Positions 6,935 through 62,880 of a DNA stretch of 64,000 bases are shown here, piece by piece. A program made the translations under genes and the position numbers. The stretch lies in contig CALXWE010000004.1 in NCBI GenBank assembly GCA_944392295.1, positions 45,819 to 109,818 on the forward strand, in the 5' to 3' direction. Under the pieces are notes generated by a model. That model made no database searches and was not told where the DNA came from. It was given only the letters and a program-made list of their open reading frames with translations. The DNA is from an uncultured Alphaproteobacteria bacterium. Lineage in GTDB: Bacteria; Pseudomonadota; Alphaproteobacteria; RF32; CAG-239. How positions within the stretch are numbered: position 1 is the stretch's first letter; every line of letters begins with the position of its first letter.

Positions 6935-6940
6935 CATAAA

Positions 6941-6969
6941 AAACCTCCGTGTTAACGGAGGTTTTTTAT
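6941..6969 (+). terminator. Rho-independent terminator after secA
   Basis: Hairpin cctccg-N6-cggagg followed by a T6 run. Confidence 0.7.
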
Positions 6970-7017
6970 TGTTTAAGCGAACACATTGTTGTTGCATTTT
7001 AATAGTTGGTACTTTTT

Positions 7018-7659
7018 TTATTTTGTATTTTTAAAATAAAATTGGAAATAGACTTGCTTTTTATCAGTTAATTCGAACTGTTGTTCACATATGTTATTTA
7101 TTTCGGAAATACTCATATTGGCAAAATCATATTGAGCGTTTACCAGGTTTATGTTTTTTCCTCCACCGGGTTGATTTCTTAAATATATAAAAGTAAATCC
7201 TTTAGGATTTTCTCTGTAAATGGGTTGTAATGCAAGTAGAATATTACGGCAATAAGAAATACCGATATCAATGCTTGGGAAGGTTATTGGAGTTTCGTAT
7301 TGAGGTTTGCCGTATATGGCTAGTACCGTATCGTGATTTAATGGGTGATTGTAAATATATATTGTACTATAAGTACCAAAGGCATCTTTCAGATACTCGT
7401 TTTGAACAGACATACCGTCGGGAATAGCATTTAACTTTTGATATATCGGAATCAAAGAATCATTTGGTTCGGCTGATATTTGATATTGATAGGTATAAAT
7501 CATATTAATTAATGATGAAATTTGCTCAGCTTGCTTATTTAGTTTATATTTCATCATCGCCTTAGAGTAACCGGCGATGGCACCGACGGATAGCACTCCA
7601 ATTATCGCCAGAACGCCGAGCATTTCGACCATCGAGCGTCCAAGTTCATTAAATTTCAT
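7018..7659 (-). CDS. Type IV pilin-like protein (prepilin N-terminal methylation domain, variable Cys-containing C-terminal domain), paralog 1 of 6, short leader
   Basis: MKFNELG|RSMVEMLGVLAIIGVLSVGAIAGYSKAM is a class III signal peptide. A short basic leader ends in Gly, Glu sits at +5 and a ~21 aa hydrophobic helix (AIIGVL) follows. A GGAGAT RBS lies 5 nt upstream. Confidence 0.7.
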   Translation of the reverse strand: MKFNELGRSMVEMLGVLAIIGVLSVGAIAGYSKAMMKYKLNKQAEQISSLINMIYTYQYQISAEPNDSLIPIYQKLNAIPDGMSVQNEYLKDAFGTYSTIYIYNHPLNHDTVLAIYGKPQYETPITFPSIDIGISYCRNILLALQPIYRENPKGFTFIYLRNQPGGGKNINLVNAQYDFANMSISEINNICEQQFELTDKKQVYFQFYFKNTK

Positions 7660-7745
7660 CTAAAAACCTCCGATTTTGAGTTGTTAAAGGACTTTAAACG
7701 AAATCATAAACCGTTTTTTTTTTTTGCAACTTTAAAAGGAATAAA
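7660..7745 (-). promoter_or_regulatory. Conserved pilin promoter/5' leader module, copy 1 (T12 tract at 7714..7725)
   Basis: A ~75 bp block reads on the coding strand TTTAAAGTTGCA-(A)12-CGGTTTATGATTTCGTTTAAAGTCCTTTAACAACTCAAAATCGGAGGTTTTTAGATG. It is near-identical upstream of all six pilin-like genes and shows TTGCAA / TATGAT-like hexamers and an RBS. Confidence 0.55.
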
Positions 7746-7777
7746 GTTGATGTTTTATTTATAATATTGTTGTTAAA

Positions 7778-8407
7778 CTATTTCCAAGTAGCATAAAATA
7801 CGCATCCGCTTGATTCTTTTAAGCAACTATTACAGAGAGTATCAAAGTCTTCTAGAGTTAGACTTCTGATACATCTTTTGTTTTTAGATGTATCACAATA
7901 AGCGTCACCATGAAGAGTGTTTGATGAATATTCCGTATCTCCGTCTTCTGATTGACTTTGGATTTGTGAATAAGCGTTATACAATATTCCTGAATGTTCT
8001 TTGTATACATTAAGTAAGTTGCGGCATATTTCTAAACCGTTATTATCTGAACTAAATCGGTAGGCTAAACCGTAAACTGTTGGGTAGGCAAATACCCAAA
8101 TATCATTTTTAAAAATATCATTTAAATAGGTTGAGTTGCGGCGAGAGATTCCATCTGGGAGCATATTTAATTTATAAAGAGTTTCAGCAAAGTGCATGGC
8201 GGCGCCGTTGGTTGATGTATTAATTAACTTATGGCTTATTTCAAAAGCATTGATAAATAACATATTCATGCTTTCTGCTTGCTTATTTAGTTTATATTTC
8301 ATCATCGCCTTAGAGTAACCGGAGATGGCACCCACCGACAGTACGCCTATAATAGCCAAGACGCCGAGCATTTCGACCATCGAGCGTCCAAGTTCATTAA
8401 ATTTCAT
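7778..8407 (-). CDS. Type IV pilin-like protein, paralog 2 of 6, short leader
   Basis: The MKFNELGRSMVEMLGVLAIIGVLSVGAISGYSKAMMKYKLNKQAE N-terminus matches paralog 1. The C-terminal domain is divergent and carries LCNSC / Cys-rich motifs. Confidence 0.7.
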   Translation of the reverse strand: MKFNELGRSMVEMLGVLAIIGVLSVGAISGYSKAMMKYKLNKQAESMNMLFINAFEISHKLINTSTNGAAMHFAETLYKLNMLPDGISRRNSTYLNDIFKNDIWVFAYPTVYGLAYRFSSDNNGLEICRNLLNVYKEHSGILYNAYSQIQSQSEDGDTEYSSNTLHGDAYCDTSKNKRCIRSLTLEDFDTLCNSCLKESSGCVFYATWK

Positions 8408-8478
8408 CTAAAACCTCCGATTTTGAGTTGTTAACGGGCTTTAAACGAAATCATAAACCGTTTTTTTTTTTTGCAACT
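8408..8478 (-). promoter_or_regulatory. Conserved pilin promoter/5' leader module, copy 2 (T12 tract at 8461..8472)
   Basis: Same conserved block as 7660..7745. Confidence 0.55.
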
Positions 8479-8494
8479 TTAAAGATTCGGGCGA

Positions 8495-9250
8495 CTAATT
8501 TTTGTAGATAACGATTTCTTTATTGGAATTCATTTTGCCTAAAGCTTGGTCTAGCTCTTGGTTTGCCGGAAACATTCCGCTTTGATGAAAAATTTGCAAC
8601 TCGTTGACGTATTGACTGTAACGATTGCGATATTTGGGCAAATCGGGATTTATACCTCCTGTCTGCGGTGCCGTAATATCGGCAGTTTGAACACTATTAT
8701 TTTCCGGATTAATACCGCCCGTATTGTTAATATTGTCGGCAAAAGTCGGTACCGTAACGGGCTGTGGATTATCATCTTCAATAAAATCGGTGGTGATGAC
8801 GGCTTGATTGTTATTGTTTGCGTCTTGGCTCGTTGCCGTTTGTGTAATTTCAGATTTGGCAGGTGGTGTATTTTGAACAACATTGCCGGTTGCTTGATTA
8901 GCGTGGCTGCCGGTGTTAGAATCCGCGCCGGTCGCGGCTGCGGTATTTGTAGTTTCGGCTTTGGCGTATACCGGGATATATCTGCCGTCAACGGCTATGT
9001 AATGAGAAATTTTGGGCTTTTTTACTCTTATCGGGGCTTGTCTGGTATTTTGCCCGTTATTGCCGGTGTTATTGTTTCGGCTCCTTATTGCCGAAGGGAG
9101 CTTGGGCTGGGGAAGGGCTATAGGCGGAAGTTTTTCGTAACGGGGTTGTAGCTCGTTTTTCGGAATAAAAAAGGCTTCTTGCGCCGCAACAAACCTGCCG
9201 GCAGCTATTATACCGGTCGTTAAAAGTAAAAAAAATACCGTCTTTTTCAT
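8495..9250 (-). CDS. Secreted low-complexity (N/T/Q/P-rich) protein, hypothetical
   Basis: Signal peptide MKKTVFFLLLTTGIIAAGRFVAAQ. The central region is compositionally biased. It lies immediately upstream (in transcription order) of the pilin tandem. Confidence 0.45.
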   Translation of the reverse strand: MKKTVFFLLLTTGIIAAGRFVAAQEAFFIPKNELQPRYEKLPPIALPQPKLPSAIRSRNNNTGNNGQNTRQAPIRVKKPKISHYIAVDGRYIPVYAKAETTNTAAATGADSNTGSHANQATGNVVQNTPPAKSEITQTATSQDANNNNQAVITTDFIEDDNPQPVTVPTFADNINNTGGINPENNSVQTADITAPQTGGINPDLPKYRNRYSQYVNELQIFHQSGMFPANQELDQALGKMNSNKEIVIYKN

Positions 9251-9293: not shown

Positions 9294-9983
9294 ATGAAAA
9301 AGTTTTATTGTATATTAATTTTTGCATTTTGTGGGGTGTTTTGCAACGCAGCTCTCGCGGCGCCGACACCGGATGAAGTGTGCGCTAAAATTGTTCGTAA
9401 ACCAAAAGTCGAACTATCTGTTTCTTACGGCAAGCTGAAATATGATTTTTCTAAAAGCGGACGCAGTCTTACCAGAATGCATATTAAACATTACGGGGGA
9501 GGCGTTCCGGCCGGAAAATATGTTAACGGCTTGGCTACTAACGATTTAACTACCGAATTGACGTTTAAATTAACCAAAAACACCCTTAATAACGGTATGA
9601 CTTGCGTGTATCCTTCCGTGGTGGAACTGAAAGTTAAAATCGATAACCCGACTATTTATCTTGCTAAAGAAATGGAAAAAAATTCTTGCATGTACAATAT
9701 TGCCATGCGTCATGAACAAACTCATCAGCAAATAAATGTTGAAGCGTTTGATTATTATTTGCCGATGATTAAAAGTGCTTTGTTAAGAGCTGTGCAAAAT
9801 TTTCCGCTCATGAGCGGAAAAGCAGATGTAAGTTTGGTGCTTGCCAAGAAGCGTTTTACCGACGAATATATGAACGAGGTTAACCCCGTACTTAATGAGT
9901 TACAAAACGAAATAAAAACCGAACAAGCCAAACTTGACAGCCAATCGCATTACGACTATGAAGCCGCACTTTGCGGGAACTAA
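9294..9983 (+). CDS. Secreted putative Zn-metallopeptidase-like protein (DUF922-like, HExxH)
   Basis: Signal peptide ending at ALA|AP. HEQTH is an HExxH motif. The size and profile fit DUF922. Confidence 0.45.
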   Translation: MKKFYCILIFAFCGVFCNAALAAPTPDEVCAKIVRKPKVELSVSYGKLKYDFSKSGRSLTRMHIKHYGGGVPAGKYVNGLATNDLTTELTFKLTKNTLNNGMTCVYPSVVELKVKIDNPTIYLAKEMEKNSCMYNIAMRHEQTHQQINVEAFDYYLPMIKSALLRAVQNFPLMSGKADVSLVLAKKRFTDEYMNEVNPVLNELQNEIKTEQAKLDSQSHYDYEAALCGN

Positions 9984-16656: not shown

Positions 16657-16700
16657 AAAAGCGGTACTTTTACAAAAGCACCGCTTTTATTTTATTGGGT
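16657..16700. terminator. Bidirectional terminator between convergent genes
   Basis: aaaagcggtac-N10-gcaccgctttt with T-runs on both sides. Confidence 0.5.
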
Positions 16701-19700
16701 TATAGAATTGTTATTTTCAAGTTTCTTTTGGCGATACATACGTATCAACTTGGTTATGTAATTTTGTATCATTGAAACCATATATTTTTGATTATAGCTG
16801 TTGTGAATTTCATCATAATTATCTGTAGATGAAATGTTTTGCGTTTCTTTACCCTTTACAAAAAGTTTGATAAGAGCTTTTTTAAGTGCGGTCGGATTGG
16901 TGTTTTCTTGGGCTAAAAATACTTCTAAACCTTTTCCGGCAACACTGCGTGTTAGGGAATTGGGGTTACGGGACTTAAAGGTATCCGACATACCGCGAAT
17001 AACTTCCTTATCATTTTTACCGGAAAGCAATATCGCTCTTACAGCATTATATCCGGCTAAATCTTCGTTAGTCTTTGAGTTGTTAATGCTTTGTGCTATC
17101 TTAATAATGGCGGCAATTTTGGCGGCGTATTGCGATTTATAATTACCGCTTTTATATAACATCATATAGGTTGTTATCATATCGGGAGTTTCGCCTTCGC
17201 CCTTTTCGGCTACCGTAAAGTTAAAGGTATCGTATAAAAGACGTCCGAATTCATATCGGTCCTCAGGTGAAAATGGATGATTGTTTTCTTGTCTGTTAAT
17301 GGTATAGATAACCTCTTTCATGATGCCTTTTAAAATGGCCGTATCAACATTTTGACGTTTGATTAATTCTCCGATTGTCGGCATAAATTCCTTTGGTATA
17401 TCCGGACTTAAGGAATTTTTATCAAGTTCCTGAATGCGATCGGCCATTATTTTGAGTAATGGTATTTTAACTTCCGATGCTTGTTGAACTTTAATTATTT
17501 CTTTCTTGATTACGCTGCCTATTTTGGCGGGTAAATACTTAAAGGAATCGGCGTACATATTAAACAACATACTGCCTAAAAATTCTCTGTCCGAATACGA
17601 TAATAAATTTTGTTCTGAATAAAATAAACCGAGTTGTTTTATTCCTTCATCAACAAAACCGGTTATGATGCTTTCATCAATTGAGGTATTGCCGTCAGCT
17701 AAGGCGTTGTTTATACAATCTACCAAATCAATGATTTGAAAATCTTTATAAAAATCAATAACAGAGAGCAGTGTCTTTAGGCAATCTGATAAGTAGGATG
17801 AAGTCGTTTGTTTTAGCCGATAAGCATCTTCAATTTTGTTTCCGAGAGTAACGCTGAACTGACGGAATAAATTTCCTTCAAAATTACTGCTTACCATTTT
17901 CTCAAAAGTTTGGTATAAAAATTTTCCAAGCAATTTTTTATCTTGTGCCGAGGCATATACGGTGGCTCGTGCTCCACTATCAAAAATACAAATGGTATTA
18001 GTTTCCGGATTGAGGCGTATCTGTCGGCCAAATTCAGTATTGCTGACATTTCCCCCGCTTATTAATTTGCTTAATTTAAGACTGTTATAAATTTTATTTA
18101 CTACCTGTCTGTAACGTAAATTTTTAATTGTATCTAATGTGTTGCCGTAACTTCTTTCCATTTCTGCCCAAGTTTTACCGTAAGCTGTCCAATTGGCTAC
18201 TCTTAGCTTAATCTTATAACCATCAATTTCAAATTCACGGTGATTGTAGGTCTTTTGGGCCGCTTTTAGCTGCTCGTAGCCTACACTTAAATCGGTCTCA
18301 ATTATAACATCATGTCGGGTTTGAGTAATTATTTGTAGAAGACTATTGATGTTTTCGGATAACAGATTGTCGTGGAATAAGTCGTACAAAGTGTCTTCAA
18401 ATGCCTTAAATTCTTTTTCGGCAGAAGTTTTTGTAGCAGCATAAACGATTTTTACAACTTTGTCGCTTTCAAATGGTGATTTGTTTTTTTCAAGTGCACC
18501 TTTTTCTAAAGTTATAAAATACGGATTGGAGCTTAGGCTGCGTCCGAGCCAGATGTTTGAACTGTAATCAAGTTTGTTATCGTCATCTTGTGTATTATAA
18601 AAGTCAAGCCATTCAAACAATTCCCAACGAGCTGGGTGCTGCTCCTTAAACTTTATTTTTTGTAACTCTTTACGTATATATTTAGGCAGAGCTAAACAAA
18701 CTGTTGCCGATTGTGCTATACGTGTAGCAACCGGACCGGCATTTTCTAAAAAGATGCGGGTGCACTCTGCTAAATTTTTATTAGCATCGATGGTTGCCGG
18801 TGTCTCAAGGGCAGCGCTCATGGCTGCAGCCAGATATAATGTGCGCTCTGAATTTTTATGAGCTTTGATGTAGCTGTGTAAAATCTTACATACAATTTGT
18901 TTCTTAACATCATCAACAGCGGGTAACAAATGTTTACATATGCAGTTGAAAATGTGCTCCCAATCATTGGCCGAAATCCCTAAATTAGAAGCTTGGATAA
19001 CTTCACCTAAAATGACGGCACGGGCCTCTATTGGATATCCCCAAAATTCATGGTAAAGCATATCAAGAGTTTGCGGAGATATTCTTTCTTTACGAGAGCG
19101 TTGACTTTCTTGCAGTGCAGAATTTAAATGCTGGCTGTAGGCTTCACAATCCTTGTTACTACCGAATGTTAAAAGAAAGTCTATCAGATTATCGGCTTCC
19201 GTGCGGGATAAGGATATTAATGATTTAATTGTAGCAAATCCGGCAATTTGCAGCCTACATCCGTCATCTTCTTCGCTTATTTCCATAAAACTTGCAGGGT
19301 AGGGTTTTAACAGAAAAGCAAGTTTTTTTTGTGCTACAAATCTTTCTGCCAACAAGTGTGATAATTCAAGTCGGTCAGCCTGATTAACATTTTCATCAAT
19401 GTCTATGCCGAACATATTTTGTTCATAACTGTAGCCGTGCAGTTTTTGAGCATATACTTTTACTTTGTTGTAAAGGGATTCTGATTTGTCATCAATTTGT
19501 GAACCGCAGGAGCTAAATACCGATTGTACCCATAGCTGTTGATAACGCCTTCTTAAATCGGGGTCTAAAATACGGTGCTGCTTATTGATGAAAATATCGT
19601 AATAACTGTTTTTTAATTCAGGCTCGCGAATACTTTCTATCTCGGGAATAAAGTTTTCCAAAAATTGATGTTGTAAAACATAATCGTCGGCAAATCCGTT

Positions 19701-22670
19701 GACTTCAACCAATTTTTGATAGGCCTTAATTTTACCTATTAAATCGACATTGAATGCCGGGTTGTCTTGGATTAGCATATTTTTGAGTTGGTTGTCGCCA
19801 ATGTAGTCTAGTGTTTTGGCTATCTCAACCGAGGCAGCAAGAGCTTTTTGCGGGTTGTTTTCTTTTTTAATTTGTTTGATTATGTAGCTCAAACTTTCCG
19901 TATCATCAATAAGACCTTGCTCGCGAAGGCTGCGGTAGACCTTAACCATGCCCAAAATGTCGGCAGGATAATTTTCTCTTTTGATTAAAAACGGTTTGAG
20001 CTTGGCTCTTTGCAAATCCAGCAATTCATAAAGCGGATACTTTGATAATATCTCAAGCGGAAACAGATGCTTGTCATCGGTGATGATGTATAGCAGCATA
20101 CCGGTTCGGATATTGGCTGCCAAATCATCGGAAGATTGTAAAAGTTTTTCATCTTTAAAGTCGGCAAAATCAACCGGAAAATCTAGAGCCTTTCGAATGT
20201 GTTCGTAAAAGACCGGTTGATATTTTTGGAAATTAATATTCTCTAATGTTAAGTGTTTGTCTGCAGCCATTTCGTTAAGAGCAAAAACGGCAAGACGTTT
20301 TAATTCGGGAATGACAATGTTGTTTTTGCTTAACAGACCTAAATCGAGAAGTTTCTTAACGCCTACTTTTTCAAACAAGGTGTTGTAATATTTAATAAAT
20401 TGGGCTTCGCTGAAAAATTGTACGCTGCGTGGGGATTTAAGCGCATCTTTACAAAATTGCATAAATTCATATTCGATAGGTTGCAATGTGTTAAGCGACC
20501 AACCGTATTCTGCATGTTCAACGTCGTTGCAAACGTGGCTTAAGTAAGCTTCAAAAATTATGTTGTCGTTTTCAAGACTATACTTCGAATTAACAAATGC
20601 TAAAATCTCGGGACCGAGCAGTTTGTTAAATCGCAGCTCGTTAAATTTGCTGTAACCTTCGTAAATTTCCGAGGAAGTTTTGAGCATGTAAAAACTATCT
20701 TCTATAAAATTTTCAACAGGCTGTTTTTGCGGATAGGCAACGCTGGTATTATCTTTGAGTAAGGCATTGGCATAATCAAGGGATGATACTGCTTCTGACT
20801 TTGCTACATATTTGTATGGACCGGTGAGACCTTTAAGATGTAAGAGGTCTTTACTGCTTAAGTTTTTAATTTTTTGCGGATTTTGCGAAGCCGTACGAAT
20901 TATATCGTAGTACTGCTTAATCTCCTTGGCAAGCTGCCGATAAATGGTATCTTCCCTGGTTTGCAGTAAATCTTCAAGTTTGGCTTTATATTCTTTTGGT
21001 GAAAACGAATCGAGGATTTTGCCTTGATTGTCGCAAATATAAAACCAGCTCTTATCGGTAACATCAGCTGAAAATGGGGCTTCGCGGTAATTGCCGCGAT
21101 AGTGTATTATATAGCACCCTTTATATATTTCTTTGGCGGTTAATCCTAGGATTTTTTCATATACGGAAGATCGCAAAGCAATTAAGGGTATGGTCTTACC
21201 TTTATCAGAACCGTTTTGTTCCAGAGGTAATTTAGGAAATCTGTCCAGCTTAAATTTTTTAAACAGATAGCTATCGCTTTTAGGGTAAAATTTTAAATCT
21301 TGCGGTAAAAATGTAGTCGGGTTGTCGGAGCTGAAACAATCTCGGATATTGGAAAATTTTGACCATACACGACGCTGATATGCAGGGTCTTCTTGGTTGT
21401 GAAATACTTTTTCAAATTCTTCCAAAATGTTTCTTCCGGTAGGAAGTTTGCTGATATCAATATCTTCTATGCCGCTTAAAATACATCCGTTATAAATGCT
21501 TAAATAATCGCCGTCGGGAAGCTGGGTTTCTAAATCAAGCAATTTATCCCAGAACAAAACGTTGGGAAAAGTTCCCTCAGCAATGGCCCGCTTTTGATAC
21601 TCTTCAAGCAGATTGTTAAATCGGGAAACAGTTTCAAATGCATCATCAGGTACAATTTTTTGCGGAAAACTTTCTAAAATTGAAATACGATGCTCAAGAG
21701 ATTCCGGCAAAGGCGTATGAAAAATTTCTTGCCAACGTTTTTGACGCAACTCTTCGTGAGCCGGATTATAACTTTTAAATAATTCATAGTCGCTTTGAGA
21801 GACAATTTTACGTGCCATATTGCGTCTTAAGTCGGCGACATAACTTAAAATAACATCTTCAATTTGTACGGCTTGATTATGAGTTAATTCCTTTGAAGGC
21901 GGAATAAATTCTTTTAGAGCAGAAATTAATATATCTTGCTTTTCGATTAAACTAAAGGAATCGTACTTTTTACTTTCTAAAAGTTTACGCAGGCTTGATT
22001 TATAGTAACTTTTGTTTACCGAAGTTTTAAATTTAACCGGAATTTCGGTCGGCTCAAAAGCCGTAATGTCAATATCTTGTTTGTAATAGAAACTTTGTAA
22101 AGATTGAATCTTTAACTGTAAAGCATTAAGCATACTTTCATTATTAGGGTATTGTTTGAAAGCTTTTAAGATTTTTGCAGATAAAGAGTGATATTTTTGT
22201 GAGTTAAGAAAAATATGGGTTATTAAACTTTCGGCCTGGGCAATGTTATATTTGGCCTGAGCTAACATTTTAAGGGCGTTAAAGTCAGAAGAATCTCCTG
22301 CGCTGTAATCGGTGTTTTTGAAATAAGCAGGAATAAGTTTTAGCTCATAACTCATAATGAAGGCTAATTGGTCTTCATTTTGTACAATATTGATTAGACC
22401 TTTGGTTACGGTTAGGACAGGAATAAGGTTTTGCTTGCCGGCTTGATTTTTAATTTGCGGAACAACAAAGGAAATATTAGGTTCACTATCGTCGGTGATG
22501 CAGAAAAATACGGGATTTTGATCAAGATCAAATGAGGTGCCGAAAAGTCGGCGGGCTATACCCTCAAGATAAGAGCATCTTTCTTGTTCTTCTTGCAAAG
22601 TACCATCAATGATTTTAATCTGGTCATACAAATCAGAAGGTAAATTTCTTTTAATCTGTAAAACATCCAT
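16692..22670 (-). CDS. Giant hypothetical protein (1992 aa), no recognisable domains; candidate secreted effector
   Basis: A single uninterrupted 5979-nt ORF. It has no signal peptide or TM segments and no P-loop or other motifs I can place. It is K/N/E/L-rich and mostly helical. Confidence 0.6.
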   Translation of the reverse strand: MDVLQIKRNLPSDLYDQIKIIDGTLQEEQERCSYLEGIARRLFGTSFDLDQNPVFFCITDDSEPNISFVVPQIKNQAGKQNLIPVLTVTKGLINIVQNEDQLAFIMSYELKLIPAYFKNTDYSAGDSSDFNALKMLAQAKYNIAQAESLITHIFLNSQKYHSLSAKILKAFKQYPNNESMLNALQLKIQSLQSFYYKQDIDITAFEPTEIPVKFKTSVNKSYYKSSLRKLLESKKYDSFSLIEKQDILISALKEFIPPSKELTHNQAVQIEDVILSYVADLRRNMARKIVSQSDYELFKSYNPAHEELRQKRWQEIFHTPLPESLEHRISILESFPQKIVPDDAFETVSRFNNLLEEYQKRAIAEGTFPNVLFWDKLLDLETQLPDGDYLSIYNGCILSGIEDIDISKLPTGRNILEEFEKVFHNQEDPAYQRRVWSKFSNIRDCFSSDNPTTFLPQDLKFYPKSDSYLFKKFKLDRFPKLPLEQNGSDKGKTIPLIALRSSVYEKILGLTAKEIYKGCYIIHYRGNYREAPFSADVTDKSWFYICDNQGKILDSFSPKEYKAKLEDLLQTREDTIYRQLAKEIKQYYDIIRTASQNPQKIKNLSSKDLLHLKGLTGPYKYVAKSEAVSSLDYANALLKDNTSVAYPQKQPVENFIEDSFYMLKTSSEIYEGYSKFNELRFNKLLGPEILAFVNSKYSLENDNIIFEAYLSHVCNDVEHAEYGWSLNTLQPIEYEFMQFCKDALKSPRSVQFFSEAQFIKYYNTLFEKVGVKKLLDLGLLSKNNIVIPELKRLAVFALNEMAADKHLTLENINFQKYQPVFYEHIRKALDFPVDFADFKDEKLLQSSDDLAANIRTGMLLYIITDDKHLFPLEILSKYPLYELLDLQRAKLKPFLIKRENYPADILGMVKVYRSLREQGLIDDTESLSYIIKQIKKENNPQKALAASVEIAKTLDYIGDNQLKNMLIQDNPAFNVDLIGKIKAYQKLVEVNGFADDYVLQHQFLENFIPEIESIREPELKNSYYDIFINKQHRILDPDLRRRYQQLWVQSVFSSCGSQIDDKSESLYNKVKVYAQKLHGYSYEQNMFGIDIDENVNQADRLELSHLLAERFVAQKKLAFLLKPYPASFMEISEEDDGCRLQIAGFATIKSLISLSRTEADNLIDFLLTFGSNKDCEAYSQHLNSALQESQRSRKERISPQTLDMLYHEFWGYPIEARAVILGEVIQASNLGISANDWEHIFNCICKHLLPAVDDVKKQIVCKILHSYIKAHKNSERTLYLAAAMSAALETPATIDANKNLAECTRIFLENAGPVATRIAQSATVCLALPKYIRKELQKIKFKEQHPARWELFEWLDFYNTQDDDNKLDYSSNIWLGRSLSSNPYFITLEKGALEKNKSPFESDKVVKIVYAATKTSAEKEFKAFEDTLYDLFHDNLLSENINSLLQIITQTRHDVIIETDLSVGYEQLKAAQKTYNHREFEIDGYKIKLRVANWTAYGKTWAEMERSYGNTLDTIKNLRYRQVVNKIYNSLKLSKLISGGNVSNTEFGRQIRLNPETNTICIFDSGARATVYASAQDKKLLGKFLYQTFEKMVSSNFEGNLFRQFSVTLGNKIEDAYRLKQTTSSYLSDCLKTLLSVIDFYKDFQIIDLVDCINNALADGNTSIDESIITGFVDEGIKQLGLFYSEQNLLSYSDREFLGSMLFNMYADSFKYLPAKIGSVIKKEIIKVQQASEVKIPLLKIMADRIQELDKNSLSPDIPKEFMPTIGELIKRQNVDTAILKGIMKEVIYTINRQENNHPFSPEDRYEFGRLLYDTFNFTVAEKGEGETPDMITTYMMLYKSGNYKSQYAAKIAAIIKIAQSINNSKTNEDLAGYNAVRAILLSGKNDKEVIRGMSDTFKSRNPNSLTRSVAGKGLEVFLAQENTNPTALKKALIKLFVKGKETQNISSTDNYDEIHNSYNQKYMVSMIQNYITKLIRMYRQKKLENNNSITQ

Positions 22671-25774: not shown

Positions 25775-26443
25775 TTACTTAAATACATAATATACAACAC
25801 ATATGTTACCCTTTAAGCATTGATTACATAAATTCCAGATAGTGCTAATATCTGCTGAATAAATACAATAGTCCTGGTTACTACACGTTTTACCATAGAG
25901 CCACTGCTGTTGATTTTCGTCGTTACTATCGGTACCGTTAAATCCGATTGCTTGTAATTCATAGGCAAAGCCTTTTGCTAAGTTAAAGCGATTAATACAA
26001 GAATCTATATCGCTGTTATAAAAACGGATGAATGTTTGCTTACTTGTATTGTCTCTGTATATAAGTATTTGATTATTGAAACTATCATAAATATAATCAG
26101 TATTATCTTTAATCATTTCTTGGGGGATTATGTTAAGCTTTTTATAATATGGAAGCATATATGTTACTTGTTCAGATGAATTTGTTTCGTATAATATGTT
26201 TTTGTATTCAATCATTCCGCTTAAAAGCTGGCTAAGTTGTTCGGTCTGTTTGTTAAGTTTATATTTCATCATTGCTTTAGAGTAACCGGCGATGGCGCCG
26301 ACGGACAAAACTCCGATAATTGCCAGCACGCCCAGCATTTCGACCATACTTCTTCCGGCGGAAAGTTTGTATAAGGGCTCATCTAAAGCCGTTTTATGGG
26401 AGCTTATTTTTACGAATTGGCATAAAAATTTATAAAATTTCAT
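25775..26443 (-). CDS. Type IV pilin-like protein, paralog 3 of 6, long leader
   Basis: MKFYKFLCQFVKISSHKTALDEPLYKLSAG|RSMVEMLGVLAIIGVLSVGAIAGYSKAMMKYKLNKQTEQ. The C-terminal domain is divergent with the LCNQC..C motif. Confidence 0.7.
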   Translation of the reverse strand: MKFYKFLCQFVKISSHKTALDEPLYKLSAGRSMVEMLGVLAIIGVLSVGAIAGYSKAMMKYKLNKQTEQLSQLLSGMIEYKNILYETNSSEQVTYMLPYYKKLNIIPQEMIKDNTDYIYDSFNNQILIYRDNTSKQTFIRFYNSDIDSCINRFNLAKGFAYELQAIGFNGTDSNDENQQQWLYGKTCSNQDYCIYSADISTIWNLCNQCLKGNICVVYYVFK

Positions 26444-26520
26444 CTAAAACCTCCGAGTTTTGTTCAATAAAGGACTTTAAACGAAATCATAAACCGTTTT
26501 TTTTTTTTGCAATTTTAAAG
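26444..26520 (-). promoter_or_regulatory. Conserved pilin promoter/5' leader module, copy 3 (T12 tract 26497..26508)
   Basis: Same conserved block. It shares the intergenic region with the divergent gene at 26654. Confidence 0.55.
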
Positions 26521-26653
26521 TTAATGCGTTTGATAAAATCAGCTGGTATGTTATGTTTATTTTTTGTTAAATCTTATTGGTTACACTTTGTTTTATTGAC
26601 TTTTGTCGCTCTTTATTTTATAATGTGACAAAAGAAGACAAAAAAGGTGCGCC

Positions 26654-32863: not shown

Positions 32864-33829
32864 TTAATATTCTCGACTTTTATTGTAACCCTTAAGGCGA
32901 GCAGCCTCACGGCATTTGTCGCGCGCGTTTAAAAACTTATCATACTGCTCTTTGGCCTTTTGAGCTTCTTGAGTGTTACCGACTTGCTGATATAGATAAT
33001 TTAACGAGTAATATATATTTTTCTTTTCATTAAATTTGCGACCGCGGCTGAAATCTTGATCATTAATAACGGTTAACAGCTCTTGGTATATGGCGATTTT
33101 ATCATCAGTTGTGTGCGGCTTGTTAAGTTCTTCTCTTAATTGCTCATAGCGAATCTGGTTAAACTCCTGCCGTTCGGCGCGTTGTTGGGCTAAATCTTGT
33201 TTATACTCAAAATACAATTCTTTAATTTGGCGGTTATAATCGTAAGCTTTAGTGTCGATGGTTTTCTTTTTTATTTCCAGTAATAAAGCATAGCGCTTTT
33301 GTGCCGGAATATTTTTCATAAAATACTGCACTTGGCGGGCAATAATATTTAATGGCTGATGGTCAAAACTACCGTCATTGTGCTTTATATCTTTTACCGA
33401 TTTTTTAACGATTTCAAAGCGGTTGTTCCATGAAGTAGGTAAACGTTGTTCATCAATATCGTAAAGATGCTCATAAATACCAATACGGGTTGTAGTATTT
33501 TGCTTAGAATCATTGGGAATAAATTGTAAAATTTTTTTAAACTTGTTATAGGTTATGAGCATAAGCTCATCATCTTCGCAGTCGGCATCAATTTTGTAAC
33601 GATTGTTTATAGCTTGTTCTACAAGAGCCACTTTCTTTTGATAGTTTTCGGGGATATGGGGCAAAAGTTCGGCAACGGCTTCTTGATGAGGCATTTTGGC
33701 AACGGTGTCTATATCTTTTCTTGCTAAACGGCACAATGGCTCTAAAGATTTTCGTGGTCCGTCAATATTAAAATCATCACATACGCGGTGGTACACATAT
33801 TGTTCAAAAAGAGTTTTATTTCCGTTCAT
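32864..33829 (-). CDS. Hypothetical protein (K/E/Q-rich, helical)
   Basis: ORF only. No recognisable motifs. Confidence 0.4.
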   Translation of the reverse strand: MNGNKTLFEQYVYHRVCDDFNIDGPRKSLEPLCRLARKDIDTVAKMPHQEAVAELLPHIPENYQKKVALVEQAINNRYKIDADCEDDELMLITYNKFKKILQFIPNDSKQNTTTRIGIYEHLYDIDEQRLPTSWNNRFEIVKKSVKDIKHNDGSFDHQPLNIIARQVQYFMKNIPAQKRYALLLEIKKKTIDTKAYDYNRQIKELYFEYKQDLAQQRAERQEFNQIRYEQLREELNKPHTTDDKIAIYQELLTVINDQDFSRGRKFNEKKNIYYSLNYLYQQVGNTQEAQKAKEQYDKFLNARDKCREAARLKGYNKSREY

Positions 33830-36277: not shown

Positions 36278-37069
36278 TTATTTTGTAAAATCAAACTGTA
36301 TCCACTGGTAAAAGTAAAGACTACCGTTATTTACAAACTCATTGTAACTTTTTTGGCAGGCTTCATAAAAATCGTGGGTTGTCATATTAGGTAGGCAAGG
36401 GGATGTAGATTTACAATTTTGCCGATAATAGTAATAATATGGTCGCTCAATCCAAACGGTTGTCAAAGATGAAGTTTCTGGTTGTATGGATTTTAACATC
36501 TGAAACGTATTAACACAAGCATCTACGGAGCTTTGTGCTTTGTTATAATGAATAATAAATGCAAGATTATTTCCATTTTTTCCTACATATAATTCTATGC
36601 TTATACCAAGAGAGGTTTTGACAACGTTTTTGCTTATATAAGATACACCATCAGGTAATGATTTTAATGTATTCAGTAACCCGGCGACATCTGTTCCCGA
36701 AGATGTTTTTTCGTAATATTTTTGTGAAATAGTCGATGTAACAGCGGTCAGCAGTTCCGAAATTTGTTGGGTGTGTTTATTTAATTTATATTTTGTCATC
36801 GCCTTAGAGTAGCCGGATATAGCGCCAACCGATAGAATGCCAATGATAGCAAGAACACCAAGCATTTCGACCATACTTCTTCCGGCGGAAAGTTTGTATA
36901 AGTGCTCATCTAAAGCCGTTTTACGGTACTGAAAAAAATTCATGTACTTTTTGTGTACACTAAAATTTTTTTCGCCCCTAGAAACGACTTTATCTAAACT
37001 CTTCTCCAAACTTTCGGGAAAAAAGGGGCTGATTTTTACGAATTGGCATAAAAATTGATAAAATTTCAT
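36278..37069 (-). CDS. Type IV pilin-like protein, paralog 4 of 6, long leader carrying a 102-bp in-frame insertion
   Basis: MKFYQFLCQFVKIS-[34 aa insert]-RKTALDEHLYKLSAG|RSMVEMLGVLAIIGILSVGAISGYSKAM. The C-terminal domain is divergent. Confidence 0.65.
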   Translation of the reverse strand: MKFYQFLCQFVKISPFFPESLEKSLDKVVSRGEKNFSVHKKYMNFFQYRKTALDEHLYKLSAGRSMVEMLGVLAIIGILSVGAISGYSKAMTKYKLNKHTQQISELLTAVTSTISQKYYEKTSSGTDVAGLLNTLKSLPDGVSYISKNVVKTSLGISIELYVGKNGNNLAFIIHYNKAQSSVDACVNTFQMLKSIQPETSSLTTVWIERPYYYYYRQNCKSTSPCLPNMTTHDFYEACQKSYNEFVNNGSLYFYQWIQFDFTK

Positions 37070-37150
37070 CTAAAATCTCCGAGTTTTATTCACTAAAGGA
37101 CTTTAAACGAAATCATAAACCGTTTTTTTTTTTTGCAACTTTAAAAGGAA
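37070..37150 (-). promoter_or_regulatory. Conserved pilin promoter/5' leader module, copy 4 (T12 tract 37123..37134)
   Basis: Same conserved block. Confidence 0.55.
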
Positions 37151-37195
37151 GTTGTCGGAAATTATCTGAGAATAAAACTTAATTTGATTACAAAA

Positions 37196-37228
37196 AAAAA
37201 CACTCTCATTACTGAGAGTGTTTTTTTA
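37196..37228. terminator. Terminator downstream of tuf
   Basis: aaaaacactctca-ttac-tgagagtgttttttt. Confidence 0.75.
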
Positions 37229-41741: not shown

Positions 41742-41920
41742 AAAAATTAAAGAGTTATGATAATTTATTATACCTATGTATTTATATCACATCTTTTATT
41801 ATGCGCAAGTTTTAAATGTACATTAGATATAGATTCTGTGTTTGTTTTTTATTGTTGATTTTCTTGACTTTGCAACGCAAAGTCAGTACCTTGCCGGATG
41901 TTATTAAAAGGAGAATCGTG

Positions 41921-43072
41921 ATGAAAAAATTGTGGCTGGCTTTGATGCTTATTATATGCTCTGCCAATTCGGCTTGGGCTATGCAAATCTTTGTTAAAAC
42001 TTTAACCGGTAAACATATTACTCTGGAAGTTGAACCTACCGATACAATTGGAGACATAAAACTTAAAATTCAAGATAAAGAGGGCATTGCCCCAAGTGAA
42101 CAAACCTTGGTCTTTGCCGGAAAAGAACTTGAAGATGCTAATACTTTACAAGATTACAGCATTTTCAAAGATTCAACTCTGCATTTAGTCTCAAACAATA
42201 AGGTTACCAATTTATCATTAAATGTTAATCCGGCTCATATTGTAAGGCAAAATGCCGATATGCTGCTTAATAACGTTGCAGCTCGTACAAGCGGCGGGAT
42301 TAGCTCCTATAAAAGTGCCGAACAAATAAATCTGCAGGATAATACTTCTCTTTGGGTCAGCACTCTTGCCGGACATTCACAATATTTAAATACCGATACT
42401 TATGGTCTTTCGTTGGCCTTTGAAAAGAAGCTGGCAGATTTTAAATATGGTTTAGGTTATGCTTATTTAAAAAATGATATTGATGATGCTTTAAACACCG
42501 ATGTACAAAATCATTCCGGCTTTGTATATGCCGAATATAAGCCTTCAGCTTGGTATACCAATGCCATAGTTATGTATTCTCATTCGCGGTTTGAAGAAAA
42601 TGATTTTAATAAATATAACGTTCAAGCTATATCTTCTCAGTTGATGAGCGGATATGATTTTTATTATGTTACGCCGGAAATGGGAATTAGATATATCCAT
42701 ATTTGGAATAACCGCTATACCAATGCTCAAAATATGCAAATGACTAAAAATAATGAAGATATTTTAACGGGGGTTATCGGTATAAAGCTGGCAAAAGAGA
42801 TAACCTTAAATGCCGATTATAGTTTTGTTCCGCAAGCCAAGGTCTCGGCATTATATGATTTTTCACGAGCCAGCGGCGTTGCCAATGCTTATGTAAACGG
42901 CAAATATGCTGTTGTTCATAGTGATGTAATGGCTAAGTATGCCACGGAAATTAATGTCGGGCTTAAACTGGTTAAACAAAATTCGTGGGAGACTTATTTA
43001 GGCTATTATGCACAGTTGCGGAATAATTATAATATTCATTCCGTAATTGTTAATTTTGCCTATGACTTTTAA
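41921..43072 (+). CDS. Signal peptide + eukaryote-like ubiquitin domain + C-terminal outer-membrane beta-barrel (autotransporter-like) fusion protein
   Basis: An AAAGGAGA RBS precedes [20 protein letters not shown]|[70 protein letters not shown]. The ubiquitin-like part is ~74% identical over 70 aa to eukaryotic ubiquitin. K48 and K63 are retained and the LRLRGG tail is missing. The ~290 aa C-terminus has alternating hydrophobic beta strands and ends in VNFAYDF, the terminal-Phe signature of outer-membrane proteins. Confidence 0.75.
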
Positions 43073-60437: not shown

Positions 60438-61199
60438 ATGAAAAAACTTGCAGCTATATTATCAGTTTCTATGCTCGCGGCTTGTGTTTATGCCGGAGAA
60501 GTAGATATCTTTAAAGGTCGTAATAAAATTTTTCAGGTTTGGCAGACCAATGAGATTTTTTTCTATGATACTCAATCGGGAGATGAGACTTTAACCGAGA
60601 GCAAGACCATTACCGAAGATGAAATTGACCGTAATCAGGTGCTTATTACTAAGGTTAATGATACGATGTTATTCAGCCGCACACAGCGAATCGATTTTTA
60701 CGGTTCAAGTAAGCTGACTGTTAATAAAGATGCCGTGATGAGCTCAAGCTATACTCCGGCTTATATTTATAAAAACAGCAATTTTGAAGCTTTGGGAGAG
60801 ACCAACATTGACGGTGCGGTTTATATGCTGGTAAAGCAAGGCAAGAGTAAAGATATTTTGCTTGTTGATGAAAAAGGTGAGGTATATCCACGTTTAGGAC
60901 GTATTGTTGATGATAGACTTGCTATTCTGGATATTGAATTTTTTGTAGAGCCGGATGATGTTAAGTTTACGCCGGTAGTAAGTACTCGTTCTGAAACATC
61001 AGACGTTATTTCCGGTTATGAACTGCGTTATAGCGGTGTTTCAAATAATTATATGAACTTTACGTACTCAACATTAGGTGATAACGGTCAGTCGGAAGAA
61101 TTTAGTTTTCCGCTCGGACAGGGCACCATCGAAATTAAAAATTTCCGCATTAATGTAATTGATGCCGGATACGATAAAATTGAGTACATAATTTTATAA
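60438..61199 (+). CDS. Lipoprotein, hypothetical
   Basis: Signal peptide with lipobox LAAC. Confidence 0.45.
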   Translation: MKKLAAILSVSMLAACVYAGEVDIFKGRNKIFQVWQTNEIFFYDTQSGDETLTESKTITEDEIDRNQVLITKVNDTMLFSRTQRIDFYGSSKLTVNKDAVMSSSYTPAYIYKNSNFEALGETNIDGAVYMLVKQGKSKDILLVDEKGEVYPRLGRIVDDRLAILDIEFFVEPDDVKFTPVVSTRSETSDVISGYELRYSGVSNNYMNFTYSTLGDNGQSEEFSFPLGQGTIEIKNFRINVIDAGYDKIEYIIL

Positions 61200-61272: not shown

Positions 61273-61983
61273 TTACTTTATAGGTAAAAAGATGTAAAAA
61301 TCACAACTGACTTCCGCTTCACAGCTATTACATAAAGTATCGATATCGGTTAAAGAAGCATTACGAAGACAGTTATTGGGATTAGTACATATAGAGTCTC
61401 CGTATAAAGCCGTGGTACCGTAACCATCTTCGTTTTTTTGCCGCATTTGAATAGAGTTTATGTTAGCGGCATTTTCTTTGGCGGCGGTAACTATATTGCG
61501 GCAGATTTGTGCCGAATAGGGGCTTATTTTGTTATTTACCCTATTCATGTTTATATAAATATTATATTCAACATGTTTGAATACAGCTTCAAAGTAATAT
61601 GAGGTGGAAATACGGTTATTAAATATATCGTAGATACGGTTGGTAGCTTCATCGTAATGCATACCCTCAGGTATCAGATTAAGTTGTTTGAAAATGATTG
61701 TGCCTATGGCCTGTTGTTGGAAGGAGCGATTTAATTGCGGACCCAATTGAATAGCATTATTAATCAGCGTGTTCATTGATTCTGCGTGTTTATTAAGTTT
61801 ATATTTGAACATGGCTTTGGAGTAGCCGGCAATAGCACCGACAGAAAGTACACCAATAATGGCTAAAACTCCCAACATTTCAACCATACTTCTTCCGGCG
61901 GAAAGTTTGTATAAGGGCTCATCTAAAGCCGTTTTACGGGAATTAAGTTTTACAAAATGGCATAAAAATTGATAAAATTTCAT
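61273..61983 (-). CDS. Type IV pilin-like protein, paralog 5 of 6, long leader
   Basis: MKFYQFLCHFVKLNSRKTALDEPLYKLSAG|RSMVEMLGVLAIIGVLSVGAIAGYSKAM. The C-terminus has LCNSCEAEVSC. Confidence 0.7.
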   Translation of the reverse strand: MKFYQFLCHFVKLNSRKTALDEPLYKLSAGRSMVEMLGVLAIIGVLSVGAIAGYSKAMFKYKLNKHAESMNTLINNAIQLGPQLNRSFQQQAIGTIIFKQLNLIPEGMHYDEATNRIYDIFNNRISTSYYFEAVFKHVEYNIYINMNRVNNKISPYSAQICRNIVTAAKENAANINSIQMRQKNEDGYGTTALYGDSICTNPNNCLRNASLTDIDTLCNSCEAEVSCDFYIFLPIK

Positions 61984-62075
61984 CTAAAATCTCCGAGTTT
62001 TATTCACTAAAGGACTTTAAACGAAATCATAAACCGTTTTTTTTTTTTGCAACTTTAAAAGGAGCTGTGCCCACA
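61984..62075 (-). promoter_or_regulatory. Conserved pilin promoter/5' leader module, copy 5 (T12 tract 62037..62048)
   Basis: Same block. It is extended by aaaaggagctgtgccca, which is shared only with copy 6. Confidence 0.55.
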
Positions 62076-62109: not shown

Positions 62110-62787
62110 CTATAAACGCCAGTTGATGTCAATGTTACAGGTTACTTTATCCATGCAGCTTTTGCACATACTGTATATTTCATCAAGAGTAATATCCGTA
62201 ATGCATTTTTGCGATGAATTGCAAGTCTTGCCGTAAAAATAAAACTCATATTGATGATCGTTGTTTCCGGATGAAGAACCGATGAATAAGTGTGAAAAAT
62301 CTTGTGAATGAGCCTTAGCAACATTTAACAGATTTTGGCAGGTTGTGAAGTTATCGGAAGTAGGTTCAAGATAATATACAATATGAGTGAGTAAAAAAGT
62401 CGGACCGCCGTTGTTACTGATTAATACTTTATTTCCCATAGCGTCATATAAAAACCCGTTTTCGACTTTCATACCATCTGGAATTAGGTTCATTTTTTGA
62501 AACAATGTTATCAAATTAGTCCACTGGTTATATTTTAATTGCGGAGTGTAGGTGGTCATAACATTAAATAGCCAGGAGATTTGCTCGGCTTGTTTGTTAA
62601 GCTTATATTTAGTCATCGCCTTAGAGTAGCCGGAAATGGCACCGACAGATAATACGCCTATGATTGCAAGAACGCCGAGCATTTCGACCATACTTCTTCC
62701 GGCGGAAAGTTTGTATAAGGGCTTATCTAAAGCTGTTTTACGGGGTCTTATTTTTACGAATTGGCATAAAAATTGGTAAAATTTCAT
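62110..62787 (-). CDS. Type IV pilin-like protein, paralog 6 of 6, long leader
   Basis: MKFYQFLCQFVKIRPRKTALDKPLYKLSAG|RSMVEMLGVLAIIGVLSVGAISGYSKAM. The C-terminus has MCKSCMDKVTC. Confidence 0.7.
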   Translation of the reverse strand: MKFYQFLCQFVKIRPRKTALDKPLYKLSAGRSMVEMLGVLAIIGVLSVGAISGYSKAMTKYKLNKQAEQISWLFNVMTTYTPQLKYNQWTNLITLFQKMNLIPDGMKVENGFLYDAMGNKVLISNNGGPTFLLTHIVYYLEPTSDNFTTCQNLLNVAKAHSQDFSHLFIGSSSGNNDHQYEFYFYGKTCNSSQKCITDITLDEIYSMCKSCMDKVTCNIDINWRL

Positions 62788-62880
62788 CTAAAATCTCCAA
62801 AGTTTGATTCACTAAAGGACTTTAAACGAAATCATAAACCGTTTTTTTTTTTGCAACTTTAAAAGGAGCTGTGCCCAAAA
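62788..62880 (-). promoter_or_regulatory. Conserved pilin promoter/5' leader module, copy 6 (T11 tract 62842..62852)
   Basis: Same block with one fewer T in the homopolymer. Confidence 0.55.

Follow-up and report, generated by a model that had tools for sequence, protein, structure and literature searches.

The window analysed here is the entire 64-kb stretch of DNA, and it carries six related pilin genes, all on the − strand: copy 1 (7018..7659, 213 aa), copy 2 (7778..8407, 209 aa), copy 3 (25775..26443, 222 aa), copy 4 (36278..37069, 263 aa), copy 5 (61273..61983, 236 aa) and copy 6 (62110..62787, 225 aa). These genes are dispersed singly or in pairs among housekeeping genes (secA, ppdK, ackA, lepA, rnhB). 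All six products display a class III (prepilin) signal with G at −1, E at +5 and about 20 hydrophobic residues, and the motif G|RSMVEMLGVLAIIGVLSVGAI is invariant in 6/6 window ORFs and in 46 homologues. The leader comprises 29 residues or more in four pilins and 6 residues in two, namely the short-leader copies 1 and 2 (MKFNELG|RSMVEML in copy 2). In copy 6, a 29-residue leader precedes G|RSMVEML..., and the extended leader of copy 4 harbors a 33-residue insertion relative to pilins 3, 5 and 6. Across the family, leaders range from 5–6 residues (MKFNELG|, MRENG|) to 29, 62 or more, with repetitive low-complexity inserts, and the longest far exceed usual prepilin leaders.

Pfam and NCBIfam pilin models matched these proteins below threshold only (Pfam N_methyl, 14 vs 21.2 bits), and a PDB profile search of the pilin returned only the N-terminus of Geobacter PilA, weakly. 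An AlphaFold model built with 46 homologues (pLDDT 82.9) predicts a 50-residue N-terminal helix packed on a β-sheet, the arrangement of a long N-terminal helix on an antiparallel sheet that defines the pilin fold. On the strength of this model, the six genes are pilins with a predicted type IVb-like fold, copy 6 included, an assignment with which their long leaders are consistent. They differ from the type IVb pilins CofA (CFA/III), TcpA and Salmonella PilS in having R, not M/L/V, at residue +1, and share only about 11–12% sequence identity with them. To our knowledge, known type IVb systems rely on a single major pilin encoded in a single operon and never on dozens of dispersed paralogues, whereas the family described here consists of dozens of dispersed monocistronic genes.

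The family is very large and fast-diverging, with 2,043 clusters at E ≤ 1e-20 and a closest non-self homologue that is 50% identical. More than 559 loci were found in species-representative genomes, all from uncultured Alphaproteobacteria and mostly gut-derived; one related MAG alone contributed at least 16 of the 80 related loci kept for comparison. No prepilin peptidase or assembly machinery was seen among the annotated window genes, and a literature search found nothing on this pilin family in gut Alphaproteobacteria. Gene content also varies between strains: strain L084 (ERZ16268303) lacks pilin copy 1 (vs window 6935–7777) and has secA directly after pilin 2, identifying copy 1 as a presence/absence polymorphism of a tandem copy.

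Each pilin gene is preceded by a compact module in the order TTTAAAG-TTGC-A(n)-CGGTT-TATGAT-5′UTR-GGAG-ATG, with the run reading as A on the coding − strand and as T on the + strand. In copy 6, the gene flagged by the first-pass annotation, the module (62785..62868, −) reads CTCCTTTTAAAG-TTGC-A11-CGGTT-TATGAT-UTR-GGAGA-N6-ATG. Its −35-like hexamer TTGCAA (62851..62856) is palindromic and matches TTGACA at 4/6 positions, the A11 run (62842..62852) is a −1 variant of the modal A12, and the −10-like TATGAT (62831..62836) follows TTGCAA after a 14-bp spacer. The Shine-Dalgarno sequence GGAGA (62794..62798) lies 6 nt 5′ of the ATG at 62787. The other five modules, also on the − strand, are built alike: copy 5 at 61981..62064 (A12 62037–62048, TTGCAA 62047–62052, TATGAT 62026–62031, 15-bp spacer), copy 4 at 37067..37150 (A12 37123–37134, TTGCAA 37133–37138, TATGAT 37112–37117), copy 3 at 26441..26524 (A12 26497–26508, TTGCAA 26507–26512, TATGAT 26486–26491), copy 2 at 8405..8488 (A12 8461–8472, TTGCAA 8471–8476, TATGAT 8450–8455) and copy 1 at 7657..7741 (A12 7714–7725, TTGCAA 7724–7729, TATGAT 7703–7708). 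The first-pass annotation had listed five tracts of 12 nt and one of 11 nt, each placed between these two hexamers; the coordinates and lengths agree exactly with the sequence, and both hexamers, with the A-run between them, are present in all six pilin copies.

Alignment of the six upstream regions disclosed the invariant block TTTAAAG-TTGC-A(n)-CGGTTTATGATTTCGTTTAAAG...GGAG-N6-7-ATGAAATTT. Invariance extends from about 12 nt 5′ of TTGC through the ATG and has an abrupt 5′ edge. The 22-mer CGGTTTATGATTTCGTTTAAAG directly 3′ of each run occurs 6 times against 0 expected from shuffles. TTGCAA shares its last two bases with the first two A's of the run, and TATGAT is placed 5 nt past the run in all six window copies, so that the hexamers of the A12 copies are 15 bp apart and those of the flagged A11 copy 14 bp. 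No homopolymer of 10 nt or more other than the pilin A-runs occurs in the 64-kb window. When an uninterrupted homopolymer of about 9 nt or more is taken as slippage-capable, the A11/A12 runs are long enough for a promoter simple-sequence-repeat contingency locus.

We then compared the upstream regions of the 80 related loci. Exact DNA scans for TTGCA-N(3–30)-CGGTTTATGATTTCGTTTAAAG in genome and metagenome contig collections that do not contain this species gave 0 matches; relatives were therefore reached through protein search. TTGC, a pure A-run, 5–7 nt and TAnnAT stand ahead of genes of this family in no fewer than 11 further genomes of uncultured gut Alphaproteobacteria, in two forms. Clade 1 (this genome, BRZ_RN bin68, BRZ_EQ bin53, BRZ_KS bin114 and SIG55) carries TTGC-A12-CGGTT-TA(T/G/A)(G/A)AT, and clade 2 (MGYG-HGUT-00610, HGM16767, H07603, B13_bin31 and ERR2619727 bin69) carries GACTCGTAAATATTGC-A10-CGCGAGC-TAAAAT. 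The distance from TTGC to the −10 hexamer is 17 nt in 52/71 modules (73%), 16 nt in 13/71, 18 nt in 3/71, and 19, 15 or 14 nt in 1/71 each. These 17 nt are composed as A12+5 in one clade and as A10+7 in the other, so total spacing has been conserved across deep divergence. The −10 hexamer is TAnnAT in 71/71 modules with varying inner bases (TAAAAT 35, TAGAAT 19, TATGAT 9, TAATAT 4, TAAGAT 4, TATAAT 2). TTGC is conserved in 98 modules, and the A-run is pure in 98/98 modules recognisable by an anchor on the 3′ part only, with 0 interruptions in 1,083 A positions. In relatives, a GACTC-N7 box is also conserved just 5′ of TTGC.

Unlike the A-run, the adjacent C of TTGC and the 5–7 nt 3′ of the run vary. 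Because its immediate neighbours change while the run stays uninterrupted, the purity of the run is maintained in itself. Read across these alignments, constraint acts on both elements that flank the run, on the total distance separating them, and on keeping the run a pure homopolymer. Length variants do occur, with off-mode lengths, mostly −1, in 19/71 paralogous modules (about 27%).

Two further observations were made in the relatives. The module also precedes genes for non-pilin small secreted proteins, including a Cys-rich one that has a signal peptide (L043 134–757; L081 ~114; L034 788–1222, −; L028 ~2716, −), which suggests a shared promoter class or regulon and not a relic of pilin duplication. 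In addition, a record named 'Lachnospiraceae bacterium H07603-L1_cleanbin_000017' (CAVBCV...) contains numerous pilin genes of this alphaproteobacterial family, preceded by the clade-2 module (L008, L010, L013, L015, L044–L046, L049, L058 and L073), and is probably mislabelled or mis-binned.

The genomic surroundings locate the promoter. About 40 nt 5′ of the copy-4 module, a terminator-type hairpin with a U-run at the end of the upstream gene (37192..37225, −; dG −17 kcal/mol, z −3.45) separates that gene from the pilin, and copies 3 and 6 face divergent genes. Given this terminator and these divergent neighbours, the promoter must sit within the module, and each pilin gene must be transcribed from the 100–200 bp that hold it. 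TAnnAT with varying inner bases looks like the signature of a functional −10, and TTGC(AA) is the only conserved candidate for a −35 or an activator site.

Measured against a canonical sigma-70 promoter, the module has a −10 of the form TAnnnT (TATGAT here) and a −35 with intact TTG (TTGCAA, 4/6 to TTGACA), and departs in its spacer, which measures 15 bp with A12 and 14 bp with A11 instead of 17 ± 1 bp. A sigma-70 scan allowing spacers of 16–18 bp did not call the six pilin modules. The run does lie between the conserved TTGC and TAnnAT, 17 nt apart, but the predicted −35/−10 spacer is 15 bp. Thus, the earlier placement of the run between promoter hexamers holds insofar as it lies inside a conserved promoter-like module, and has to be amended in that the spacer is 15 bp, shorter than implied, and not 17. 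Since 15 bp falls outside the typical 16–18 bp range for sigma-70, the mode of recognition is uncertain and may need an activator; by analogy with Bordetella fim, the promoter could reasonably be one that is assisted by an activator. Neighbouring housekeeping genes have canonical-looking candidates with 16–17 bp, such as TTGACT-N17-TATAAT at 26596; a survey of TTG-N(s)-TAnnnT spacing in 29 regions upstream of other window genes was noisy, with a few canonical 16–17 bp candidates.

Other readings of the module were tried and rejected. A sigma-28 promoter does not fit, as its −35 'TAAA' is not conserved and relatives have TTTTTGA or TTTTTAC before TTGC. An invertible promoter of the fimS type was dismissed because no inverted repeats bracket any module. 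The T-run of the + strand was discounted as a terminator, as the terminator scan found no preceding stem. Rfam gave no match in the modules and only tRNAs and the SRP RNA in the window.

Downstream of the −10, the 5′UTR is predicted to fold into a hairpin in which the Shine-Dalgarno sequence and a portion of the start codon are sequestered (window 62785–62825; likewise in the five other copies). The window-type fold has a dG of −8.7 to −10.5 kcal/mol (z −1.3 to −1.9). Clade-2 5′UTRs (e.g. L039, L022) have another sequence with the same design (UCUUCUCAAA/UUUGAGGAGA; dG −10 to −11.5, z −2 to −3.2), and no such sequestering fold was found in the BRZ_RN-type 5′UTR. The predicted hairpin may represent a layer of translational control.

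To follow tract length at single loci, the same loci were retrieved from other metagenome assemblies by exact-protein look-ups; all are consensus assemblies, and several are 100% identical to the window and may represent the same strain instead of independent samples. Copies 1 and 4 measured 12 and 12 each, and copy 2 measured 12 in five assemblies, including two strains 2–3.5% divergent. Copy 3 was 12 in three assemblies, with one further allele (L087) that departs over 5,669 bp at a single base, a C→A change at 26509 adjoining the run. Copy 5 was 12 in the window and 13 in assembly L001, and this A12/A13 indel is the sole difference in 4,891 bp. Copy 6 was 11 in the window, 11 in L001 and 12 in strain L092; because L001 is an independent metagenome assembly, the A11 is not a slip of this one assembly. 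Among further family loci, P0052 had 12 in six assemblies, 11 in one and 10 in one, plus a contig starting with 13 or more A's; P0079 had 12 in three and 11 in one, with identical flanks; P0031 had 12 and 12; and P0092, from a clade-2 species, had 10 in four assemblies.

Taken together, 30/36 orthologous alleles were at the mode and 6/36 off it, and tract length varied at 4/10 loci. Where two genomes are almost identical, they differ mainly in the tract or at its edge. Length thus differs between strains at the same locus, within a narrow distribution to which some low-coverage assemblies contribute; a number of the variants were read from thinly covered Illumina assemblies (L001 at 7.9x) and may reflect error. 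The copy-to-copy variation noted at first sight is borne out, amounting to ±1 to 2 among paralogues and among assemblies of the same locus. At the same time, the A5 and A7 runs found in this intergenic DNA differ about as often among strains 95–97% identical. An unconstrained A12 should vary far more, which argues for stabilizing selection (or gene conversion) and against free switching. Judged from these alleles, the run is slippage-prone, with its length held by selection or gene conversion.

Assembly quality deserves care in such counts. The A21 'tracts' of L033, L089 and L101 were rejected as artefacts, since A's stand in place of TTGC and adjoining bases while the overall length stays the same. 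There (L033 ~107–127, L089 ~795–815, L101 ~454–467), the flanks TTGC and TAAAA are turned to A's, giving apparent runs of A14–A21; by contig name, coverage is 1.7–1.9x for L089 and L101. These patterns look like read errors beside a homopolymer and are a warning for any census of tract lengths from MAGs. In representative MAGs, about half of the pilin loci (L002–L081) are found no more than a few hundred bases from the end of their contig, and the first base of several contigs (L004, L048, L025 and L102) falls within the module or the A-run itself. Assembly in this lineage evidently breaks down at the repeated promoter/N-terminal block, and the repeated module explains why its MAGs are fragmented at the 5′ ends of pilin genes. 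Contigs that end within the run were set aside as a sign of heterogeneity, being indistinguishable from breaks due to the repeated module.

The anatomy of the module, the conservation of its elements and of their total spacing, the purity of the run and its length polymorphism among paralogues and strains were read directly from the sequences. The explanation we favor, to which we give a probability of about one half, is that the A-run is a spacing-critical promoter spacer in which slippage produces occasional heritable expression variants, acting as a dimmer or switch for each gene. Each pilin gene would own a copy of a family-specific promoter, in which a −35-like TTGC(AA) and a −10 TAnnAT are separated by a spacer made up almost wholly of the A-run (A12 plus CGGTT). 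We infer that RNA polymerase, or an activator together with polymerase, uses these two elements and that transcription starts just 3′ of TAnnAT. The distance between the elements would be functionally critical and set by run length. Because a homopolymer of 10–12 nt is prone to replication slippage, single genes would occasionally gain or lose an A. The spacer would then change from 15 bp to 14 or 16 bp, shifting the elements in rotational as well as linear register. Such a shift would change how strongly that one gene is transcribed, heritably and reversibly; ±1 changes in length would thus alter expression, and the variation might be used adaptively. The flagged copy, with its A11 run and 14-bp spacer, would be a gene currently in the shifted state. 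Selection, or gene conversion between the 87–98% identical 5′ blocks, would return lengths to the set point.

Run stability is where this explanation meets its strongest competitor, which we regard as quite possible if on balance doubtful: the A-run may be a fixed structural element, a rigid, straight, narrow-groove spacer of exact length that RNA polymerase or a family-specific activator would need, with ±1 variants representing mildly deleterious mutational noise or sequencing error, weeded out by selection or gene conversion, and no switching in use. A narrow length distribution with one mode over paralogues, strains and genera is what such an element predicts, and structural or sequence selection would directly explain purity over 1,083 positions. 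Nearby short A-runs are as variable as the A12, several aberrant tracts are clearly low-coverage assembly artefacts, and the promoter plus N-terminal coding block is 87–98% identical between paralogues, so that gene conversion could reset lengths. A pure spacing need, however, would tolerate substitutions in the run, and we know of no promoter class that requires a pure A10–12 spacer. Off-mode lengths are, moreover, not rare (27% of paralogues; 4/10 loci polymorphic) and occur on intact genes, and the A11 of copy 6 is stable in two assemblies. It also counts against a fixed element that a slippage-prone sequence has long been kept in front of variable surface genes, as at contingency loci (PMC1891110, PMC10502178).

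The first-pass annotation had proposed the tracts as candidates for classic slipped-strand switches. That part of its proposal which concerns the run itself stands, as the run is slippage-prone and its lengths vary; the narrow length distribution, together with nearby A5–A7 runs that vary about equally, speaks against the remainder, and a classic ON/OFF contingency switch is for these A-runs a hypothesis. Two things are usually conflated here: a promoter homopolymer can be slippage-prone and still be held at one length, and for this reason sequence alone cannot establish a phase-variation switch. A more ambitious version of the spacer explanation, which we find rather improbable, would make the pure A10–12 run, with its purity and set length preserved by selection, the shared 'knob' of a dedicated promoter class serving dozens of dispersed pilin genes per genome and other secreted proteins across the lineage. 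Independent slippage would then dim or switch genes one by one and generate combinatorial pilus display at the level of the population, with the non-canonical 15-bp spacing accommodated by specialised activator or sigma recognition.

We consider it very unlikely that the A-run lies outside the promoter spacer, with transcription starting upstream of or within the run (from TAAAGT/TAAAAT/TAAATA before TTGC) and the run forming the mRNA 5′ end (reiterative transcription/leader), or that it is an UP-like element serving a promoter located further 3′. The 15-bp spacing is non-canonical, and a TAnnnT-like hexamer does stand before TTGC in all module types; yet no −35-like element is found at a usable distance 5′ of that first hexamer, and in this genome conservation does not extend beyond about 12 nt 5′ of TTGC. 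A second TAAAGT 17 nt past the run in the window-type module could be cited in its favor, but it is missing from other module clades, whereas TAnnAT after the run is universal. This arrangement would also leave the conserved TTGC-to-TAnnAT distance without explanation. Sigma-54 promoters, usual for type IVa pilin genes, have GG and GC one helical turn apart (TGGCAC-N5-TTGCA). That TTGCA is a sigma-54 −12 element, or part of another alternative-sigma site with the A-run downstream, is scarcely credible: TTGCA fits the −12 consensus, and there is a GGGCAC upstream in two window copies and a GG upstream of TTGC in clade 2, but GG and GC stand 21 nt apart in window copies and 15 nt apart in clade 2 where sigma-54 strictly needs 12, GG is absent from 4/6 window copies, and the conserved TAnnAT is left unexplained.

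The spacing-critical spacer that we favor can be placed beside known homopolymer-controlled promoters. Mycoplasmas lack mismatch repair, and the vlp promoter spacer is roughly 17 bp. In Mycoplasma hyorhinis, each vlp paralogue has a promoter containing a poly-A tract (Citti & Wise 1995, summarised in PMC10502178), and ON/OFF switching and its link to tract length have been shown experimentally (PMC10502178). Common to vlp and window pilins are paralogous variable surface genes, each with its own conserved promoter copy containing an A tract. Indels in a vlp tract change transcription of its own gene alone, whereas the window pilins offer sequence polymorphism only; vlp products are lipoproteins and the window products type IVb-like pilins, most copies of which are at one modal length with a 15-bp spacer.

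The fim2, fim3, fimX and fimN genes of Bordetella pertussis/bronchiseptica have promoters made of a 'fim box' plus a C-stretch (PMC1891110). The C-stretch sets the distance from the upstream recognition/activator region to the −10, and one-base changes alter transcript levels (PMC1891110). Tract length among strains ranges over 10–15 for fim2 and 13–18 for fim3 (PMC1891110). Fim and window genes alike are paralogous pilus major-subunit genes behind a conserved promoter with a homopolymer, and the GACTC-N7-TTGC box upstream of the run in relatives may be compared with the fim box. The fim system is poly-C, BvgA-dependent and serves chaperone-usher fimbriae, while the runs described here are poly-A and precede type IVb-like pilins; lengths here span 10–13 with A12 dominant, a narrower range than at the validated fim2 and fim3 switches, and the family numbers dozens of genes against four fim genes per genome.

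Promoter homopolymers are also found at porA and opc of Neisseria meningitidis. Meningococcal and window surface-protein genes alike have a homopolymer within their core promoter or beside it; meningococcal tract length correlates with expression level (rheostat-like), and these cases are single genes as opposed to a family-wide module. At nspA of N. meningitidis, which has an A5/A6 promoter tract, the authors did not succeed in detecting switching, and −35/−10 spacing was excluded as the mechanism (PMC6389960). As nspA illustrates, length polymorphism in a promoter A-tract can alter expression even where no rapid switching is detected, and need not mean a fast switch.

Other window ORFs merit mention. 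The product of ORF 41816–43072 (+) has a signal peptide, then a near-eukaryotic ubiquitin sequence (...STLHLV; Pfam ubiquitin E 2.6e-24) and finally about 290 more residues; their ending, ...NFAYDF, resembles the C-terminus of an autotransporter or outer-membrane barrel. Judging from this sequence, it could be a surface-displayed or secreted ubiquitin mimic. No Pfam match was obtained for ORF 16692–22670 (−; 1,992 aa) or for ORFs 8495–9250, 9294–9983, 32864–33829 and 60438–61199.

The class of mechanism proposed is well known; what is new is the lineage of uncultured gut Alphaproteobacteria, the dispersed type IVb-like pilin family with its dozens of copies, the conservation of a pure A-run throughout the family and across genera, and the 15-bp geometry. 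As a practical tool, the module TTGC-A(n)-CG...TAnnAT marks these genes cleanly and can be used to find them. If the run tunes or switches each gene, uncultured gut Alphaproteobacteria would possess a very large repertoire of individually adjustable pilus subunits. If true, this would be a commensal counterpart of the surface-variation systems of pathogens, relevant to adhesion, phage receptors and gut immune recognition. And should the 'knob' reading be true, this would be by far the largest homopolymer-controlled surface-gene family known.
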